Under the pieces are notes generated by a model. That model was not told where the DNA came from. It searched no databases and saw only the letters and a program-made list of their open reading frames with translations. A DNA stretch of 62,750 nt, filler included, from Asterionella formosa (taxonomy: Eukaryota): the NCBI GenBank assembly GCA_002256025.1. It is 15 parts of 15 records of this genome, joined end to end, with 100 filler letters (N's around TTAATTAATTAA, not from the genome) between each part and the next. Parts side by side here need not be neighbours in the genome. Positions count along the whole stretch, not along the records: positions 12,594 to 16,688 come from NKIB01013715.1; 14 more parts are not named here. The stretch is one strand, 5' to 3'. Numbering within the stretch: position 1 is the first letter of the stretch; each line of letters opens with the position of its first letter. This document shows positions 4,099-22,930 of the stretch, piece after piece. A program made the position numbers and the translations under genes.

Positions 4099-4198
4099 NN
4101 NNNNNNNNNNNNNNNNNNNNNNNNNNNNNNNNNNNNNNNNNNTTAATTAATTAANNNNNNNNNNNNNNNNNNNNNNNNNNNNNNNNNNNNNNNNNNNN
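4099..4198. other. Artificial scaffold-joining linker, first of 14 (others: 8297-8396, 12494-12593, 16689-16788, 20883-20982, 25075-25174, 29267-29366, 33457-33556, 37646-37745, 41834-41933, 46019-46118, 50204-50303, 54388-54487, 58570-58669)
   Basis: Each is 44 N + TTAATTAATTAA (stops in all six frames) + 44 N. The sequences between them run from 4098 down to 4081 bp without ever increasing. Confidence 0.98.
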
Positions 4199-6535
4199 CT
4201 CATGCCTAGATTAATTTCATTGGCAGCCACTTTTTCTATCACTGCCTCAGACATCATCAAATTCAATAGATGTCGTCTGTATCTGCAGGTGCTCACTCTG
4301 TCCGACATTGTCGACAGTACAGGCAACACCATTGATAAGGACTTTTGGAACAGATACAAAAACAATAGAGTCTTCAATCTCTCCTGGCCCAAACAAACCC
4401 GCCCTGGCCCCACCAGCTGGACAATTTGGAGACGCCTACTTTCACACCTCTTCACCATCAAATCTCGCTCCCCTCACCTTCGCCCTCAAAGCTGTCTCCT
4501 CAAATGGCTTCCCACTGGACCCTCTCACCAACACTGGCCGACATATTTGCATCCATCATCTTCTACCTTCTATTGTCGCCTCCCCTCTGATCCTTCCCTC
4601 TTCTCCCCTTATCGTCGGAACAATCGGCTCCGCTTCACACCCACTCCAAATAACCTTACCTCCACTCTTCCCTCTTCCGCCATTCCAATTTCGGTCTCTT
4701 CCTGGCTCCCCTTCCCGCAAACTCTATCCCACCATATTCGAATTCTCCCCTCCCTTCTCCCTGAATCACATCTCCCACCAACCTTCTCCACCTACCTTTC
4801 ATCTCTCTCTTCTTATGACAATTATTATATCGGCCAGGTTACCTTCCCGCCCGATATTCTACCACTCCTCCAAGATATCAAAACCAATAATTTTGAAGTT
4901 GCCACTGATGGATCAGTCCGCTCTCCCCATGGCTCTTTCTCATGGCTTATTCATGGCCGCTCCAGTGGCACCCAAATCTCTGGCTACAACACTACCACCT
5001 TCACCGCCACCCCTCTTTCTTCCTTCCGGACAGAGTGCTGCGGCTATCTTGGTGCAGTTCTTGCTCTTCGTGCTCTTCTTACATACCATGATCTTCTAGA
5101 TCCCCTCACTCCTTTCACTGCTAGAGCTCACATCGACAACCAGGCCCTAGTCAAGCGTCTGTCTCACCACCATCAACACTCAATTCGTCACAGTCTCCAC
5201 CCAGACTGGGACCTTATCCACTCAGCCACGAAGGTTCTGGCATCTATCCCGGTCGATCTCCAGGCGGTTCACATCAAAAGCCATCAAGATGACAGCAAAC
5301 CCTATGAAGCCTTAACTCTGCCTGCAAAACTCAATATCCAAGTTGATAGACTCACTCATTTAGCCTATCTCCGCTGCCCCCAGCGCTCTATTACTCCGCT
5401 TTCCCCTCAAGTCCCCGCTACCCTCCTTCTTCAGGGATCTCAAGTTACATCTCAGATGATCCCTACAACTCTGACAGCGTACTATAAGCCCAAACAATTC
5501 AAGTACTTCCAAACACGACACGGATGGACGCAGTCAATCTCTGACTCTATTGACTGGAAGTCTTCCACCAGTGCATACAAACACTTGTCATACGGACGCA
5601 GACTAGCAATGTTCAAGTTAATAAATGGACAATGGCCTACCAACAAAATCTTACATCGCCGTGGCAAAGCCCCGGCTTCCTTATGCCCACGCTGCTCCAA
5701 TGCCGTTGAGGACCACGATCACGTCCTAACCTGCTCAGCTTCTTGCCACTTTCGGGATACAAAGTGGACCGCTCTCTCTGACCATCTGAAATCCAAACTT
5801 TGCACTCCTCCCCATATTCTCCTTGCCCTAACCCATGGTCTCCAATCGTGGGAAAATGGTGACATTCCCCCACTTTGGCCTCTTCCAGATCCCTCCCCAG
5901 CCGACCCTCTTCTTTGGACGACCTATCAGGCATATGTCCAACAAACAGCTATAGGATGGAACCACCTCCTAAGGGGACATCTATCAGTTTCTTGGGCCCA
6001 TACCATGACAACCTATCACTCCATCAGAAATCCAGACCAACGCTATGAATCCTCTCTTTGGACAAGTCAACTAATCAACTCCTTATGCGCATATGCCATG
6101 GAACAGTGGAATAATCGCAATGATTTTGTCTATGGCGCCACTCTCCTTGCCACTAATGAACGCCGAATCACATTGCTTCGAACACAGACAACTACAGCTT
6201 ACTCAAACCAGATCTCCGTCCCAGCTGATGAACGAGGACATATATTTGGCCTTCCTCTCTCTCAACGCTTACTTCATTCCCCATCGGCACTGACGGCCTG
6301 GCTGGCAATCTATCGTGCGGGTCAACTACGCCTCACATCCCAAAAACGTCAAGACAAACGCCGCCAGAACACAATCCGAAAATTTCTTATCCATCGCGCG
6401 ACCCCTCGCCGTCCCTCTTCACCTGTCTAAGTCCATCTAATCGAACCGGGCGCTTCGCGCCCCGGTGCGACCCAACGAACTCCACACTTTAGTCGAGGCT
6501 CGATAACGCGTACTAAAAAATTTAGTTACCATGTA
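4199..6535 (+). mobile_element. 3' part of a non-LTR retrotransposon with RNase H and a CCHC zinc motif (Ambal-like diatom LINE); ORF 4202-6430
   Basis: RNase H motifs ATDGSV, SSFRTE, IDNQ, DWD, HIKSHQD and LNIQVD; zinc motif CPRC..EDHDHVLTC; uninterrupted 742-aa ORF; strong C/T bias on the sense strand. Confidence 0.88.
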
Positions 6536-7500: not shown

Positions 7501-8396
7501 GATTGATAAGAAGATACTGTGATATCATGATAGGGTTACATCGATGGTTTCATCGATACATACATCACCAAAGTATGATACGTAATATTGAATAAAGTAC
7601 ATCACATAGCTATGATGCAGCGATCATAGAACTGTGATGATTTTTTAAAATGATTATCATATAATTTTGATCAAAATATGATTATGTAAAAATAGTACAA
7701 TGACAATAAAGTATGATAAAATATGTACGCAAGTGTTACCAAGACATCATAGAATATAAATCAAGCAATCATAAATTATGTTAATAAATAGATATGTTTG
7801 TCGTTTAATGTATACAGTGAAAGTCAACACTTAATATGATTGTATTATACAGTGGATAGGATCTAAGTATACAGATGCGTTGATATGTACATTACTGCTA
7901 TAATATGATTTGTGATATGGATTGATGCATATCACATACTGGTATCCTCAACAACCAGCCATCACGTTCATTGTCGTGTCGTATTTCATTGGTTTAGCTA
8001 TATATATGCAGGCATGTGTATTGTGTAAACACTACGCTGGCGGAACATGCATATTACACTGCTGTGCTCTGTTCAACAATTACTACACCCGGTTACTACT
8101 ATCACACCAGTTCCACCTTCACAAGCGCCGCAATAAGCTCCGCGTTTCCTTTCCACTGTTTTACATCATAGTCTTCTGGCCCTTTGACAACTTTCCAAAT
8201 GGCATTTCATGGATTTCATGGAAAGGATCAGTCAAACAAGAAACGAGACTTACTTCCATTGTTTACAATACACGACTTTATGTTTTCGGAAAAGAANNNN
8301 NNNNNNNNNNNNNNNNNNNNNNNNNNNNNNNNNNNNNNNNTTAATTAATTAANNNNNNNNNNNNNNNNNNNNNNNNNNNNNNNNNNNNNNNNNNNN

Positions 8397-11990: not shown

Positions 11991-12593
11991 TCATTTTGCT
12001 CGAGATAGGCAAAAGTGAAAATCGAAAAGCCGAACAACGTTTTTTTGAAATGTAGTTGCCAATTTAAAATTAACTTAATTTATATTATACTTAGATCTAT
12101 AGCTTTTTTTCATGGCGCACATTAGGGCAGCTGAGAGGGAGAAAATTGTACCGGTAGGAGTCGAACTTGCCCCGTAGAAATTTTAACAATCGCCGCAATT
12201 ATTTTCAAGCAGAGTACAGTACCAGGAAAGAACTACCTATGTAGATGGAGCACAGTATAGAATACTGGTTTAATACTTACATGCCGGGTACCTGGGTACC
12301 GTTATTTGTTGAGGCAGATTGCTATTTTGGTAAAATGCAGCCGTCATCATAATCACCGCATATTGATGTGTCAAGTTTTGATTGGCGGGAGCAGTTCGTT
12401 CTGAAAACGAGGTGGCTAATCCTAGTACGTATCGTCCAGACGTTTTACACACTCAGCATCGTCAATGCCGAGCAGGTATAATGACGTCGTATANNNNNNN
12501 NNNNNNNNNNNNNNNNNNNNNNNNNNNNNNNNNNNNNTTAATTAATTAANNNNNNNNNNNNNNNNNNNNNNNNNNNNNNNNNNNNNNNNNNNN

Positions 12594-15002
12594 TATCTTT
12601 GACTCTGCTCCATGCAATATAGAGACTCACACAAGAAACAACAACAACAAAGGCACAGCAAATCAGCCAAAGAAATGGCTCACTTGGTGGTATTCGGTTC
12701 AGCTCAAAAATTAAAAGAAGACTGGTGGCTGTGACGATCGTAGCGTGGCCCGACGGATAAGACATTTGTGCATCCTGTAATTCTCGAGGATCAGTTTCTT
12801 CACATTTCTTGGTATCTAAATTATAACGCGACCTTTCATATGCGTGAGGCCTGGGTCGACCAAAGTATAACTTGAGTACATTTATGACAATCACAATCAC
12901 ACCCAGTACATGAAAATAAATACGAATGCCCACATGCTCATCGCCATTGGGTCCGTAGTTTGTTCCATGCCAGAGTAAGAATGCTGCAACAATCAAGACA
13001 AAAAAAAGCAACTTCCAGTTTGGAACTCTCTCTTTTTTGATGTGTTTGTGGTCAAAACTCTCAAATAATTTCTCCTCTCCCTCTGATATATCAATTGGAA
13101 TTTCCTTGCATCCGATGCATAGTCGACAAAGCAAATTCATCATCTCTGAAAAAACCAACATCAAAACAAAGAATAAAAAGCTTGCAACAGCATCAATGGC
13201 AGAATCCGAGCACAACCAAAAAGGGATGAAAGGCTTGTTGACGATAGTCTGTAATATATATTCTGAAGAGAAAAAACGACAACAACATTCGGCTGTTACC
13301 GTGGTTGCCGCAAAGGCACAAATGGCACAAACTGTCCCTATCAATCCAATGATTTTTGCATTTGTATCCATCTTGACAAAAGGGGGACTAGTGACATAAT
13401 CTCCTTCCAGATCATCGTCCTCGGATTCTTTGCTTTTATTAACGCGGGCCCGAATTTTGCAACTGACTGAGTTTGACCCAACTGCAATGACAATCATTTT
13501 GCCACTTCCTTGAATTGTCGATTTTCCACTCAAAACTACATCTCCAGGATGTTTAGCAATGAGCTTACTCTCCCCCGTCAAGGTACTTTCATCCACTTTC
13601 AAACCTGCCATGAACAAAAAGCTTGCAACAGCATCAATGGCAGAATCCGAGCACAACCAAAAAGGGATGAAAGGCTTGTTGACGATAGTCTGTACTATAT
13701 ATACCGAGATGACGAAGCGACGACAACATTCAGCTGTTATCGTGGTTGCCGCAAAGGCACAAATGGCACAAACCGTCCCGATCAATCCAATGATTTTTGC
13801 AATTGTATCCATCTTGACAAAAGGGGGACTATTGACATAATCTCCTTCCAGATTATCGTCCTCGGATTCTTTGCTTTTATTAACGTGGGCCCGAATTTTG
13901 CAACTGTGTTGGCAATAGGACACTTCGGAAGTTTGAATGCCCGTCTTGGGTGATGACTTGAGAACACGAGAGGCCAAGGCCGTAGCCGGAAGTTCCGCCG
14001 TCTTGTCGTTGGATTCGTCCTCCCGCAGCTGGACGCATAGCTGCAAGACATTCTGAATCATGGTTTGTTCTTTGGTTGGCGCTTCTTCGTCGACTGCAAG
14101 AGCGTGCGTCCCAGTCTGAGCTCCTTCCATGAGGTCACATAGGGCAGTGGGAGTCCGCTCATTGGCCCAGACGGACAGGGGCTGGGGACCTTTCAGAGAA
14201 AAGGCTAGCTTCCCCGTGCAAGTCCCCCAGTCGCCCAGACTGCTGCTGATACTTGCATCGACTTGCGCGGCAAAGCACCCTTGGCGGGGTGTCACATGCG
14301 AGTTGTTCCGATCGAATGCAAAGTCCACGGGAGGTTGCTCGAACGTTGGGCCGTTTGCAGAGGCGATGGTCATTGTGTAAGAGCGCTCGACGTGTTGGCG
14401 ATAGGACACTTCGGAGGTTTGAATGCCCGTCTCGGGTGATGACTTGAGAACAAGAGAGGCCAAGGCCTTAGCCGGAACTTCCGCAGTCTTGTCGTTGGAT
14501 TCGTCCTCCCGCAGCTGGACGCACAGTTGGACGCACAGCTGGACGCATAGCTGCAAGACATTCTGAATCATGGTTTGTTCTTTGGTGGGCGCTTCTTCGT
14601 CGACTGCAAGAACGTGCGTCCCAGTCAGAACTTTTGTGTTTCCACGCGCTCCGCCCCTTTCTTTCTTGACTTGGTCGTACACCTGCACCTGGACAGTGAC
14701 AATCAAGGGTTTGCCAAGCTGAATATCGATGACGAATACAGACTTCCAATTGGGGCTGAGAGTACTTGCGATACTGAAACAAAGACGGCAAAGGCAGAGA
14801 GTGAACCGAGTTACACGGAGATGCAGAGGGTCAACGAAGGTTTCAATTCATATACTCACGTTTCAGTCGTTCCGATGACATCGGGCTTCGTTCCTGCCTG
14901 TGTAGTTGATACATCACGAGTCACTACAGCATAGGGATCTGAAGTGCCGCAACTGGTTGGATTCTTAAGATTGAAAGCGTGAACTGACAGCTCGATTTTC
15001 AT
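12594..15002 (-). CDS. Mosaic gene: C2 domain + duplicated segments + P-type Ca2+-ATPase fragments + PAP2 phosphatase (exons 15002-14860, 14773-<12594)
   Basis: A GTGAGT..TTTCAG intron at 14774-14859 joins C2 motifs (LKN..SDPYAVV..IGTTET/IASTLSPNW) in frame to the 722-aa ORF. Actuator motif VDESTLTGES..GSGKMIVIAVG. PAP2 motifs KLYFGRPRP, PSGH and SRV. 3' end lost at the scaffold edge. Confidence 0.8.
13172..13906. repeat. Direct duplication B (~13172-13465 and ~13613-13906)
   Basis: Near-identical ~290-bp copies encoding SCKIRA..SPPFVKMD..IGLIGTVCAICAF..VASFLF. Confidence 0.9.
13907..14626. repeat. Direct duplication A (~13907-14116 and ~14392-14626)
   Basis: Near-identical copies encoding GTHxLAVDEEAPTKEQ..GIQTSEVSY. 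One copy has a 12-nt unit (LCVQ) three times. Confidence 0.9.
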
Positions 15003-17268
15003 GTTTTTGATTCTTCCCTGTTTCGTTCTGGACTTTTTATGCGTCTGCTTGGAAATCATGTGCGTAAAGTGATTGCATGATGTCGCAGATTCACAACATA
15101 ACAAGTCCACCAGGTACCGGTAGGTCGCAGTTTTCCCGTGGGTGATGCTTTCTGCAACCAGTGCCAGTGCGGCAGTACCAGGTACTTGGAGTACCGGTAC
15201 CAGGTACCTGGTACTCGGGTTCAACAAAGCGTTCGGTGAATACCGGAATGTCGAGATCTACAGGACATCCCGTTAAGAACTGGAAGGAAAATGTATCATT
15301 AAGCAAAGTGGTACATAAAATATATTCATATATGGATGGTAAACCACTGCAGTACCAAAAGGGCTAGGTGAGAGGGCGGACGGATGAGAACAGTACATAT
15401 GGAACAGGCAATGAATGATCCATTGCAGCTACATACATAAAGAGCAGCACAAGTCCAAATACAGTTACGTAGAGTTTACTCACTCTCAGTAGTTATGCCT
15501 TCTGCAATGTACGGCGCGACCAGGCATCCAGATGCGTCGACGTGTAAAAATAAACGAACGACATGGCTGCATAATGCATCCATGCTAATACCGGGACCTG
15601 GTACCAGCACGAGGTATCTGGTACCAGGTAATCATCAGTCAAACTCATGTCGTAGGGTTAAGGGAACAAGGAAAGATTCTGTAACACAAGCCGTGTCACA
15701 TCCGAATCTTTCCTTCTTTGGTAAGTGTACTGGTACCGGTACGTGTTCTACCGGCAGCCGCTGTTTTCATATGCATGTGTAAAGCTTGCATATTGCTACT
15801 GGTCGCTGCAAGTTACGGTAAATGAGTAACCCTAACTACTCCTACCTCCAAGTTGCAATCATTTTGCTGAAACTGAAATGCAGGAATGGCGGGAACTCAA
15901 AATAGACTCCTACAGTAAGACTACTTTGACATTTACAAATTCCTAATGGTTTCGCTGGCCCATTAATTTCAATTTTATCAAAATCAAATTTCAAAGAATG
16001 ATTTTGTGAAAAAACCAGTTTCCCAAACCTTTCTACCATTGGGGGAATGAGTTTCACCCTAAAATAGTTCCTGCCAAAGCGAATTCCAGCATAATAATAT
16101 TCAAAGCAATCATACTACAAATAAAAGAAGGTAACCAATATCTACAATGTCCAAATCGTCATTTCGGCAAATTCACTGCAACTTGCAGGTACCAGGTACA
16201 CCATAACCCTGGTAGACTTTACATATGGTGCAAAGTACTGCAATGATAGACGTCCTTACATTTATAGATATTGGATATTTACCTACTAGCTAGTACCTGA
16301 ACATTTACTACTGATACACTAGAGGGAAACATTTGCAGAGTGAGTTGATGAGAAAAACAAAAGTTGCGAAGCCATGATTTCGGTCTGCTGTGCTCGTCCT
16401 TGCCATGTTCCCCAATTGCCAACCCAGCCCTCATCAAATTGATTGTCTGTGATCAGTGAACAACAACTGCAGAGTGAGTTCATGAACAAACAATCATTAC
16501 AAAGGCATCATTTTCGTAACAAGAGCCATGAGAAACATGTTGGCATACTCCTAATTTACATATGTGTTTTGCCGTTGTTGAGCAAAATTATGTCTACAAT
16601 CAGCAACATAGAAAAAGTATAAACATTTAAATATCATTTTTGTTCTTTTTAAATGGAACTCTATCAATCTGGCCCCGATTCCTATTTANNNNNNNNNNNN
16701 NNNNNNNNNNNNNNNNNNNNNNNNNNNNNNNNTTAATTAATTAANNNNNNNNNNNNNNNNNNNNNNNNNNNNNNNNNNNNNNNNNNNNAGTGTATACCTA
16801 AAAGGATTTTTTCACCATCAGATATCTGAAGGCTTTTGCAGTCACACTATTAGACTTACTCCTACAACAACTGCCAGTGAATTGGCGACTTTTCGTTTGT
16901 CATGTGATTGTGAAATCAAAAAGTGAAGAATGCATCTAAATAGTACAGATAGGAGCTTGATGACTTAATTGAATTGTACAGAAGTATAAGTATTACTGCG
17001 CATTATTAAGTTTTTGAAGGTAGTGAATACATAATGGTGCATGCGTTTTTCCTGTTTTGGCATCCACAGCAAATTCATGATAGGAAAACGTATGAAATAG
17101 CAAAGTTTTGCGCCACAGGAAAGGATTTAAATTTAATCCTGACCCACTTAATGCAGAATGTGAAGTTGGTAAAAATTTGTACAAGTGTACCCAGCAATTG
17201 GATTGGCCATTCCTTTTTCCCTGACCTCTTCGTATCTCTCGTGTGATAGCAAACACGTCAACAAGAGC

Positions 17269-21785: not shown

Positions 21786-22930
21786 TGTTGAAATGGTTCG
21801 TACTCCTTCCCGCGGGCCGGGTCTCTCTTCACGTAGACTCTTACGTGCTCGTGGTACTACCTAGTAGTACCACTTACTTTCTCTCTTGTCGCTGCTTCTA
21901 GCCTTCCTGCTAGATAGACTAATTGACCTTCCTATCAATTAACACACTGTTTCCTCGGTTGATAATCTAAACTCAAATTAAATTATAAGCTAAACTAAAT
22001 GTTTCCTTTCCATGCATCTTTGCTTCCCACAAAGTCGTTCTAAGACTCTCTTCGAGTTGTCACTTAACATTTCCATAGAAATGTTCAATCTTTGATTTTG
22101 TTAGACAGCTGATTGACGTGGCAATGCAATATTCGACTCGTTTGATTACAATCGAGTCCACAATCCTTGTGACTCAGGCTAATATTCTTGACATCCTCCC
22201 CATTGCCACGCTCAAGAGGCTGCAACATCGTTCCACTCTGAACTGGTTGGGACAATCTCATGTGAATCTGTTCCTTCACGTTCTTAGTCATAATGTCTGC
22301 AATATCATCTTCCTTGATAACCTTTTTCATATATTCCACTGCACTTGGAGTCCCACATGTAATACCGTCATCCACGTAATTTTCAAGTAGACCATCAATT
22401 TGTCCATCCTTGTTCTGGTGCATAAATAACATAGGGTCGATCTTGCTCTTCGTCATACCTAGTTTATCAGTGACACATTTCGCAAACGTCCTGGACCAGC
22501 ATTGTGGAGCTTGTACTATCCTGTACATATGCTTCACAAGCTTGCAAACATGTGTATCAGAATCGACTCCAATCAAGCCTTGAGGGGGCTCAATATAAAT
22601 GTCCTCATCGACGTCAGCATTTAGGAATGCTGCTTCCACATCAATAGCCTCCGTTCGCCAACTGTTGTACATCGTCACTACTAGTACTGTTTTGATTGTC
22701 GCATCGCTTGCAACTGGAGCAAATGTCTCAGTAAAATCGACACCTGGCCTTGTAAATGGTCTTCCCGGTTAACACATCTTTTTTAATTCGAAACACCCAC
22801 CACGTTTTTAGTGTGGTTCACTTCTTAACAGTTTCACGCTTGACAACTTTCCACACTCCTCTGCTTCGACTGGACGTTTTCATATTCTTTGTTGATCGCC
22901 TTGATCCACTCTTTCTTGTCTGGTCTTGCC
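21786..22930 (-). mobile_element. Internally deleted Ty1/Copia element: RT remnant, PPT (22194-22207) and 3' LTR (21786-22193)
   Basis: ETFAPVA, IDVEAAFLN, VQAPQCW and YVDD are joined directly to the RNase H tail ADIMTK. PPT GGCAATGGGGAGGA is followed by TGTCAAG...TTTCAACA. Confidence 0.9.

Follow-up and report, generated by a model that had tools for sequence, protein, structure and literature searches.

A transcribed mosaic of copine and calcium-pump fragments with a PAP2 phosphatase in the diatom Asterionella formosa

How one open frame comes to run through parts of a copine, a PMCA-type calcium pump and a PAP2 phosphatase, and whether such a frame amounts to a working gene, is the question raised by a locus in the genome assembly of the diatom Asterionella formosa (GCA_002256025.1). 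The mosaic gene lies on the minus strand of a 4,095-nt unplaced contig (NKIB01013715.1; positions 12594-16688 of the window, by which we mean the whole stretch of 62,750 nt that was analysed). The window consists of 16 small pieces sorted by falling length, from 4,098 down to 4,081 nt, one of them with an inner gap of 504 N. They are joined by linkers of the form N44-TTAATTAATTAA-N44 (14 counted, with 0.03 expected by chance), a layout that we take to be the usual way of stringing leftover unplaced contigs together. A blastn search with the contig as query gave no copy of any part of it on the 15 remaining contigs of the window. A reading made from the sequence alone had described one frame of about 770 codons across the junctions between the parts, and this description holds: 14847..12595 (-) translates into 751 residues free of stops, and joining exon 1 across the intron gives a spliced frame of 774 codons without a stop, still open at the contig end, the frame stopping at 12594 because the contig itself ends there. 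The mosaic is a real natural sequence that is transcribed and spliced. Probably it is young, restricted to one lineage and the product of DNA-level non-homologous joins among diverged copies, drifting near neutrality.

The reality of the arrangement was examined in public sequencing runs, 24 of which were listed. Part of the stretch is contained in 20 of them; since even the best contain no more than 0.65 of the sampled words, an exact copy is absent from all. Logan contigs were used from four runs of four studies, X3 (DNA), X4 (lake metatranscriptome), X8 (poly-A RNA) and X2 (type uncertain), and the bridging results cover 32 of the 241 contig pieces. Joint J1 (copine to pump) is bridged in all four runs, and record 13 of X3 spans 14582-14949 with zero mismatches. 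J2 is bridged by X2 record 5 (14047-14446), X4 record 21 and X8 record 30 and by no listed X3 piece; X8 record 30 differs from the window at nine of 299 letters, and a loose end in X4 at 14389 continues into the parental pump leader. J3 is bridged as well, in X2 and in the DNA run (Table 1), which leaves J4, of the four joints examined in this way, as the one that no listed piece bridges. At J4, a loose end in X3 at 13612 continues into normal pump sequence, a parent-like form, and the 79 nt beside the joint are identical in segments B1 and B2, so that breaks at this point are to be expected in short graph contigs.

The splice joint 14773>14860 is found in X2, X4 and X8 and not in X3; the intron is removed in the RNA contigs and kept in the DNA run. 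The only splice contig with at least 31 letters on both sides is X8 record 31 (186 on the shorter side). The same spliced contig crosses J1, and the RNA contigs X4 record 21 and X8 record 30 cross J2, so the chimeric form itself is present in RNA. RNA cover ends near 15461, whereas the DNA run X3, which serves as the control for silent stretches, covers 30 of 30 bins. Gaps in cover occur in X2 over segment T and PAP2 and in X4 in bin 13553-13689; no weight was placed on either.

The sequence-only reading took the frame to cross junctions between unrelated pieces and placed a unique spacer between the two A copies. Instead, A, the spacer, B and the TGES piece all derive from one PMCA-type pump, the spacer being the pump 5' untranslated region (5'UTR) followed by codons 1-85, with the pump methionine aligned to frame residue 159. 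P0003, a 1,161-residue pump with all pump domains, aligns to A1, U plus A2, B1, T and B2, and the closest named pump relatives come from the pennate diatoms Seminavis and Cylindrotheca (54-64% identity). Segment T, with TGES at 13567-13578, aligns to residues 227-291 of the solved PMCA2 structure 9gsd_A, and the sole pump domain found in the frame by Pfam is E1-E2_ATPase (42.9 bits against a cut-off of 28.1, frame residues 417-475). Pump residues 158-292 and everything beyond about residue 400 are missing from the mosaic. As had been noticed, a B copy lies ahead of the actuator and the phosphorylation motif is missing: B1, with one copy of transmembrane segment 3 (TM3), precedes T, so that the frame lacks the TM1-TM10 order of a pump; the P2B Ca2+-ATPase phosphorylation site DKTGT with its P and N domains is not present in the frame, and a motif search found no DKTG anywhere in the 774 codons. 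No N-terminal autoinhibitory domain was detected in P0003.

Both repeats are real. The B copies (13171-13465 and 13612-13906) are 94% identical at a spacing of 441, and the A copies (13906-14122 and 14392-14632) are 93-96% identical at a spacing of 486 or 510 and terminate at the identical base. The A spacing varies because a 12-nt unit, CAGCTGGACGCA (encoding LCVQ; 14026-14060 and 14512-14570), is present three times in A1 and once in A2. The same unit occurs four times in a pump copy on a metagenome contig (L001, below) and behaves, to judge from these counts, as an in-frame minisatellite inside the pump N-terminus. The A region is also richer in G+C, as had been thought (0.55-0.59 over A and the spacer vs 0.33-0.44 elsewhere). 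A metagenome scan with P0001 found one locus only, L001 (positions 1-1441 of its contig), which is a pump 5' copy and not a mosaic. It carries the same 5' leader as the mosaic and is itself damaged, with a frameshift after TM1, the loss of about 195 codons from TM1 to TM4 and an intron retained after DKTG. Three further proteins from two sources (P0040, P0041 and P0043) consist of a pump N-terminal fragment that ends after RENES and is followed by a common unrelated tail; the tail, back-translated, would contain GGTACC-like words and could be an intron, an insertion or a further recurrent breakpoint.

The 5' end of the gene comes from a different parent, a copine gene that contributed its leader, its first exon and intron and a portion of its second exon. 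P0137 is a copine of 596 residues with two C2 stretches and a Copine domain, and the 73% identity of exon 1 to its residues 1-46 establishes copine descent at the level of sequence; the copine-like C2 start with its 86-nt intron, which RNA contigs skip, was thus read correctly from the outset. Identity to P0137 is 53% for window exon 2 and 67% for the same stretch of the relative P0036. Compared with P0137, the C2 part of the mosaic has 14 residues missing and two extra, and its Pfam C2 scores (12.4 bits for exon 1, 17.7 bits for P0036) both lie below the 22-bit cut-off. The first C2 domain of the mosaic is damaged. Pfam found no Copine domain in the frame, which lacks the copine architecture of two C2 domains and a Copine/vWA domain.

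The third parent supplies a PAP2 lipid phosphate phosphatase gene as a whole, starting at its own N-terminus. Pfam PAP2 (PF01569) scores 46.7 bits against a cut-off of 27.2 over frame residues 643-744, and 75.5 and 75.8 bits in the relatives P0002 and P0032. Residues 516-751, searched against 1.84 billion representatives, gave 94 matches at E <= 0.001. The nearest stand-alone PAP2 protein, P0046 (281 residues), is 41% identical, and its own start aligns with 'KPF' just after the variable linker. The B repeat, which comprises pump residues 345-400, the 18-codon linker and the first 24 PAP2 codons, is therefore a copy of the joint between pump and PAP2 itself. This linker, at joint J5, is probably a former PAP2 5' leader, a reading with which the concentration of B1/B2 differences in it agrees. 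A candidate 51-nt in-frame intron in the linker after TM3 was rejected, because the RNA contig X4 record 18 (12818-13332) reads through it; no splice joint is listed in that region. Of the PAP2 motifs of the sequence-only reading, KxxxxxxRP (as KLYFGRPRP, 12847-12873) and PSGH (12745-12756) were located in full, and their columns are invariant in the PAP2 alignment; of the third, SRxxxxxHxxxD, only SRVKD (12595-12609) precedes the contig end. The full form of the third motif is found in P0033, which is 97% identical.

An AlphaFold2 model from a 43-row alignment has a mean predicted local distance difference test score (pLDDT) of 53.2. Residues from about 600 to 751 alone reach 70-87; T lies at 37-44, and the N-terminal 600 residues are mostly below 50. 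In a Foldseek search against solved structures the top three rows are human LPP1 (9l0i), with E-values of 1.1e-3 to 4.6e-3, none at or below 0.001, and target TM-scores of 0.41-0.43. The best 50 rows contain no C2 domain or P-type ATPase, the model being poor outside PAP2. To judge from the model and the conserved motifs, PAP2 is the only module that could still act.

Table 1. Parts of the mosaic gene, its joints and the surrounding linkers (positions in the window)
Feature	Position	Strand	Remarks
5' leader in RNA contigs	15003..15461	-	X8 record 31 extends to 15461; 11 upstream ATGs, one in frame at 15059
GGTACC palindrome cluster in leader	15174..15215		metagenome contigs break or vary; loose ends at 15191, 15196 and 15214
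Exon 1, copine start (first C2 domain)	14860..15002	-	73% identity to residues 1-46 of copine P0137
Intron, 86 nt, GT..AG	14774-14859	-	spliced out in contigs of RNA-type runs X2, X4 and X8; retained in DNA run X3
Exon 2, copine part	14633..14773	-	C2 strands to about copine residue 105-106
Joint J1 (copine to pump)	14633/14632		bridged by outside runs; common to P0036 and P0042
A1, pump residues 86-157	14392..14632	-	three 12-nt CAGCTGGACGCA units
Joint J2 and 15 nt of pump 5'UTR	14374..14391; J2 at 14392-14389	-	in-frame read-through; L001 has the same leader
U (the 'unique spacer'), pump codons 1-85	14119..14373	-	alignment to pump P0003
A2, pump residues 86-157, second copy	13906..14118	-	one 12-nt unit
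Joint J3 (pump 157 to 345)	13906/13905		bridged by X2 record 4 and DNA run X3 record 11
B1, pump residues 345-400 with the actuator-TM3 linker and TM3, 18-codon variable linker and first 24 PAP2 codons	13612..13905	-	
Joint J4 (end of first PAP2-start copy to T)	13612/13611		no bridge among listed pieces
T, pump residues 293-344, actuator piece with TGES	13465..13611	-	
B2, pump residues 345-400, second copy	13297..13464	-	normal pump order after T
Linker, pump TM3 to PAP2 start (joint J5)	13243..13296	-	holds 11 of the 19 B1/B2 differences
PAP2 lipid phosphate phosphatase from its own N-terminus	12595..13242	-	truncated by contig end
Linker N44 + TTAATTAATTAA + N44	12494..12593		cuts gene inside third PAP2 motif
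Linkers in window	4099-4198, 8297-8396, 12494-12593 and so on		features touching one are cut by assembly, not biology

Related records allow the order of events to be followed in part. Protein searches returned 30 relatives that are close to it in length and a further 14 that are shorter. All mosaic relatives are at least 81% identical, against 41% for the nearest stand-alone PAP2, which confines the mosaic to one narrow lineage, where it is a rearranged member of a small family. Two joints, copine to pump residue 86 and pump TM3 to PAP2, recur in other public records: P0036 (383 residues) and P0042 have J1 and then unbroken pump sequence through TM1, TM2 and the actuator, and P0002, P0032, P0033, P0034 and P0037 have T, B, linker and PAP2 with J5 at 87-97% identity. 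These overlapping partial records point to an older fusion of a copine N-terminus, pump residues 86-400 and PAP2, a core that, on their evidence, predates the rearrangements of the present copy. To it this copy adds three joints. J2 places a second pump 5' fragment (5'UTR and codons 1-157) behind the first A segment, J3 skips pump codons 158-344 (TM1, TM2 and half of the actuator), and J4 comes with the duplication of a 441-nt unit. U is missing from the older fusion, so the stretch from U to A2 must have been taken from a pump 5' copy and is not a simple internal duplication. The B1 and B2 linker types follow one another in the window, and each is found without the other in further records. 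At joints whose parent DNA could be compared (L001 and the X3 and X4 loose ends), the overlap is 0-3 nt. The sequence-only proposal of a gene assembled from fragments of several calcium and membrane-lipid genes is thus right about the kind of donor, but the donors are three and the core fusion is older than this copy. Several relatives are broken: the frame is lost after TM1 in P0038 and P0042, which have the same out-of-frame tail, and within B in P0036. P0037 departs from PAP2 after ASFLF, the exact residue of J4 in the window (13612), and continues differently; the J4 position may be a recurrent breakpoint.

The history that we consider probable would run as follows. Joining would have taken place in DNA, by non-homologous or microhomology-mediated steps of the kind suggested by the short overlaps, and the parts would have been drawn from diverged alleles or paralogues, as the separate existence of both B linker types suggests. 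Expression would start from the 5' end that the copine supplied. Neither the pump parts nor the C2 part would work as such, and any protein made would be a PAP2 enzyme behind a junk leader of about 550 residues. The frame may have stayed open since PAP2 would be translatable solely by read-through from the copine ATG; alternatively, this copy may merely be the open-framed member among several broken relatives.

The drift in this history is drawn from the substitutions. Between U plus A2 and L001 the ratio of non-synonymous to synonymous rates (dN/dS) is 0.94 (five synonymous and 15 non-synonymous differences) and 1.15 (two and seven), values at which neither purifying nor positive selection on the new frame is apparent, the counts being small. 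Nine of the 31 listed variants are synonymous and 22 change a residue (four and 11, respectively, of the 15 in the PAP2 part), and the pump part of B1 against B2, taken alone, has a dN/dS of 0.70. Substitutions in the pump N-terminal part therefore look near neutral, on these small counts. With a dN/dS of about 0.9-1.15, 22 of 31 variants residue-changing and P0036, P0038 and P0042 out of frame, the suggestion that selection or a dedicated mechanism has preserved the frame does not find support. By chance, all three copy-specific joints would fall in frame about once in 27 times, a matter of arithmetic and not a test. The open frame is to that extent a mild oddity, but this copy was picked for its long frame in the first place.

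Several results nevertheless weigh against a history of joining and drift. J4 has no bridge among the 32 listed pieces of 241, and the structure there rests on the assembly. All five joints, the 14-residue gap and the two-residue insertion are in frame and both former 5' leaders are free of stops, an order that exceeds what simple decay leads one to expect. The overall dN/dS between B1 and B2 is 0.36 (eight synonymous and 11 non-synonymous differences). No change in PAP2 falls at an invariant motif column, and constraint on the PAP2 part may be the reason. Only nine to 31 differences underlie the dN/dS figures, one of the sequences compared, L001, is itself damaged, and 40 further variants lie outside the 31 counted. 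Finally, the out-of-frame relatives are contigs of unknown quality represented by protein sequence only.

Mobile elements could have assembled and spread the gene in another way, through the capture of fragments by a DNA transposon in the manner of Pack-MULEs or Helitrons or through template switching of a reverse transcriptase between mRNAs. Several related, differently broken copies exist, retroelement pieces lie on neighbouring contigs, and both the pump leader (15 nt upstream of the ATG) and the PAP2 linker begin inside 5' leaders, a pattern expected from template jumps at mRNA 5' ends. The copine part, however, retains its intron, and T and B start at internal pump codons. An inverted-repeat search of the contig gave only short GGTACC palindromes, no transposase or reverse transcriptase was found on the contig (12594-16688), and the X3 depth is similar over PAP2 (12.5) and over the unique stretch upstream (8-10), depth not being copy number. 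We consider such an origin unlikely.

If the frame were instead a working new gene, a membrane-anchored calcium regulator in which all parts matter, selection would have kept it open. The five in-frame joints and two leaders without stops would then be explained, as would expression and splicing in lake metatranscriptomes and a poly-A library; the J2 contig with nine differences in 299 letters means that the arrangement has persisted while diverging, and a fusion of copine and pump unites known partners (PMC12167975). Against this stand the dN/dS of about 1 in the pump N-terminal part and the 22 of 31 variants that change residues, as well as a C2 domain short of 14 residues and its last strands and below the Pfam cut-off. 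The fusion replaces the first 85 residues of the pump, the equivalent of the plant copine-binding segment, and P0003 has no detected autoinhibitory domain. The first 600 residues are mostly below a pLDDT of 50, relatives are frameshifted and the leader holds 11 upstream ATGs. A working gene in this sense seems to us quite improbable. Its most specific form, a selected 'Rosetta-stone' protein of calcium homeostasis in which C2 and a doubled pump N-terminus are anchored by PAP2, is doubtful to a slightly greater degree; if it were true, the protein would tune the parental Ca2+ pump by serving as a decoy or tether, or would place PAP2 activity under the control of calcium, and the in-frame survival of five joints would reflect selection in natural lake populations.

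An assembly artefact, a mis-join of alleles or paralogues over the whole contig or, chiefly, at J4 alone, is very improbable, since J1, J2 and J3 are equally odd and yet are bridged by independent runs (J1 and J3 also by the DNA run X3), the single nucleotide shared at J4 offers an overlap assembler no homology from which to make the joint, and a De Bruijn break is expected there next to 79 nt identical in B1 and B2, even though the contig belongs to a set of 16 leftovers, each about 4.1 kb long, the B copies match two linker types found separately elsewhere, no J4 bridge is among the listed pieces and X3 shows normal pump continuation at 13612.

The surroundings of the gene contain features of their own. 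The word GGTACC occurs 47 times in the window (6.3 expected), mostly in clusters of two or three within 30 nt (for example at 2997, 12287, 15196, 15600, 21445, 22970, 25034, 29756 and 34985). Many of the clusters form palindromes of the CCAGGTACCTGG type, on many contigs and with unlike flanks, and the cluster in the leader (15191-15215) is exactly where contigs of the metagenome run X3 break or vary. Summed X3 contig depth is 100-235 over 16019-16688 against 8-30 over the rest of the contig, which suggests a dispersed repeat located upstream of the gene. No Pfam match came from its open frames or from the upstream open frames at 15441-16246. One X3 contig skips 634 nt in 15215-15850 and several short skips fall in 15787-16148; all are structural variants outside the transcribed part, on its upstream side. 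The neighbouring contigs hold a mix of retroelement fragments and ordinary genes, the retroelement pieces lying at 22085-22768 (-) and 4199-6430 (+), with RVT_2 at an E-value of 1e-23 and a weak zf-RVT match below its cut-off.

Set beside known systems, the C-terminal 216 residues of the mosaic resemble PAP2 phosphatases such as human LPP1, with KxxxxxxRP, PSGH and the start of the third motif. In contrast to these enzymes, the mosaic carries an N-terminal extension of about 550 residues that includes two pump TM3 segments. For annotators this is a warning that a long frame on a leftover contig can be a mosaic with one plausible working domain.

PMC12167975 describes copines as binding partners and activators of autoinhibited plasma-membrane Ca2+ pumps, acting on the N-terminal start segment, in lineages from algae to flowering plants. 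Like the regulation by BON1 described there, the mosaic brings together a copine and the N-terminal region of a PMCA/ACA-type pump, and the joining echoes the regulatory partnership of plants. In that system, two separate proteins bind one another and activation requires the Ca2+ site of the copine VWA domain, whereas the mosaic fuses only a damaged C2 piece, which replaces pump residues 1-85.

Capture of gene fragments by Pack-MULE, Helitron or CACTA elements, as presented in PMC1947982 and PMC6446971, also yields host-gene fragments in a transcribed chimeric frame and several diverged copies. The mosaic differs from such captures in having no terminal inverted repeats or transposase on its contig, which ends inside the gene. 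The listings returned by our literature searches contained no paper on a copine-pump-PAP2 fusion, nor on Pack-type capture of such genes in diatoms.

Chimeric genes from partial duplication are well known, jingwei being a further example of a chimeric gene, and the diatom case is an unusually intricate one. Partial and tandem duplications have produced such genes in Drosophila (PMC5460883 and PMC4069613). As in the cases covered there, the 5' end and promoter side of one gene is fused in frame to others, tandem-duplication breakpoints lie within genes, and the product is expressed, young and restricted to a lineage. The features to be looked for in a chimera of this kind are found here: the parents can be identified, J1-J3 are confirmed outside the assembly and the chimeric form is transcribed. 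The diatom mosaic departs from the portrayed Drosophila genes in its three parents, five joints, two read-through leaders and diatom host; its pump supplies four shuffled pieces, and the mosaic comes without evidence of selection. It is a well-documented natural case, from a diatom, in which partial duplications and non-homologous joins have yielded a multi-parent frame that is transcribed and spliced in wild populations, and the older fusion and its further-rearranged derivative, visible together, should be useful for studies of gene birth and decay in diatoms.

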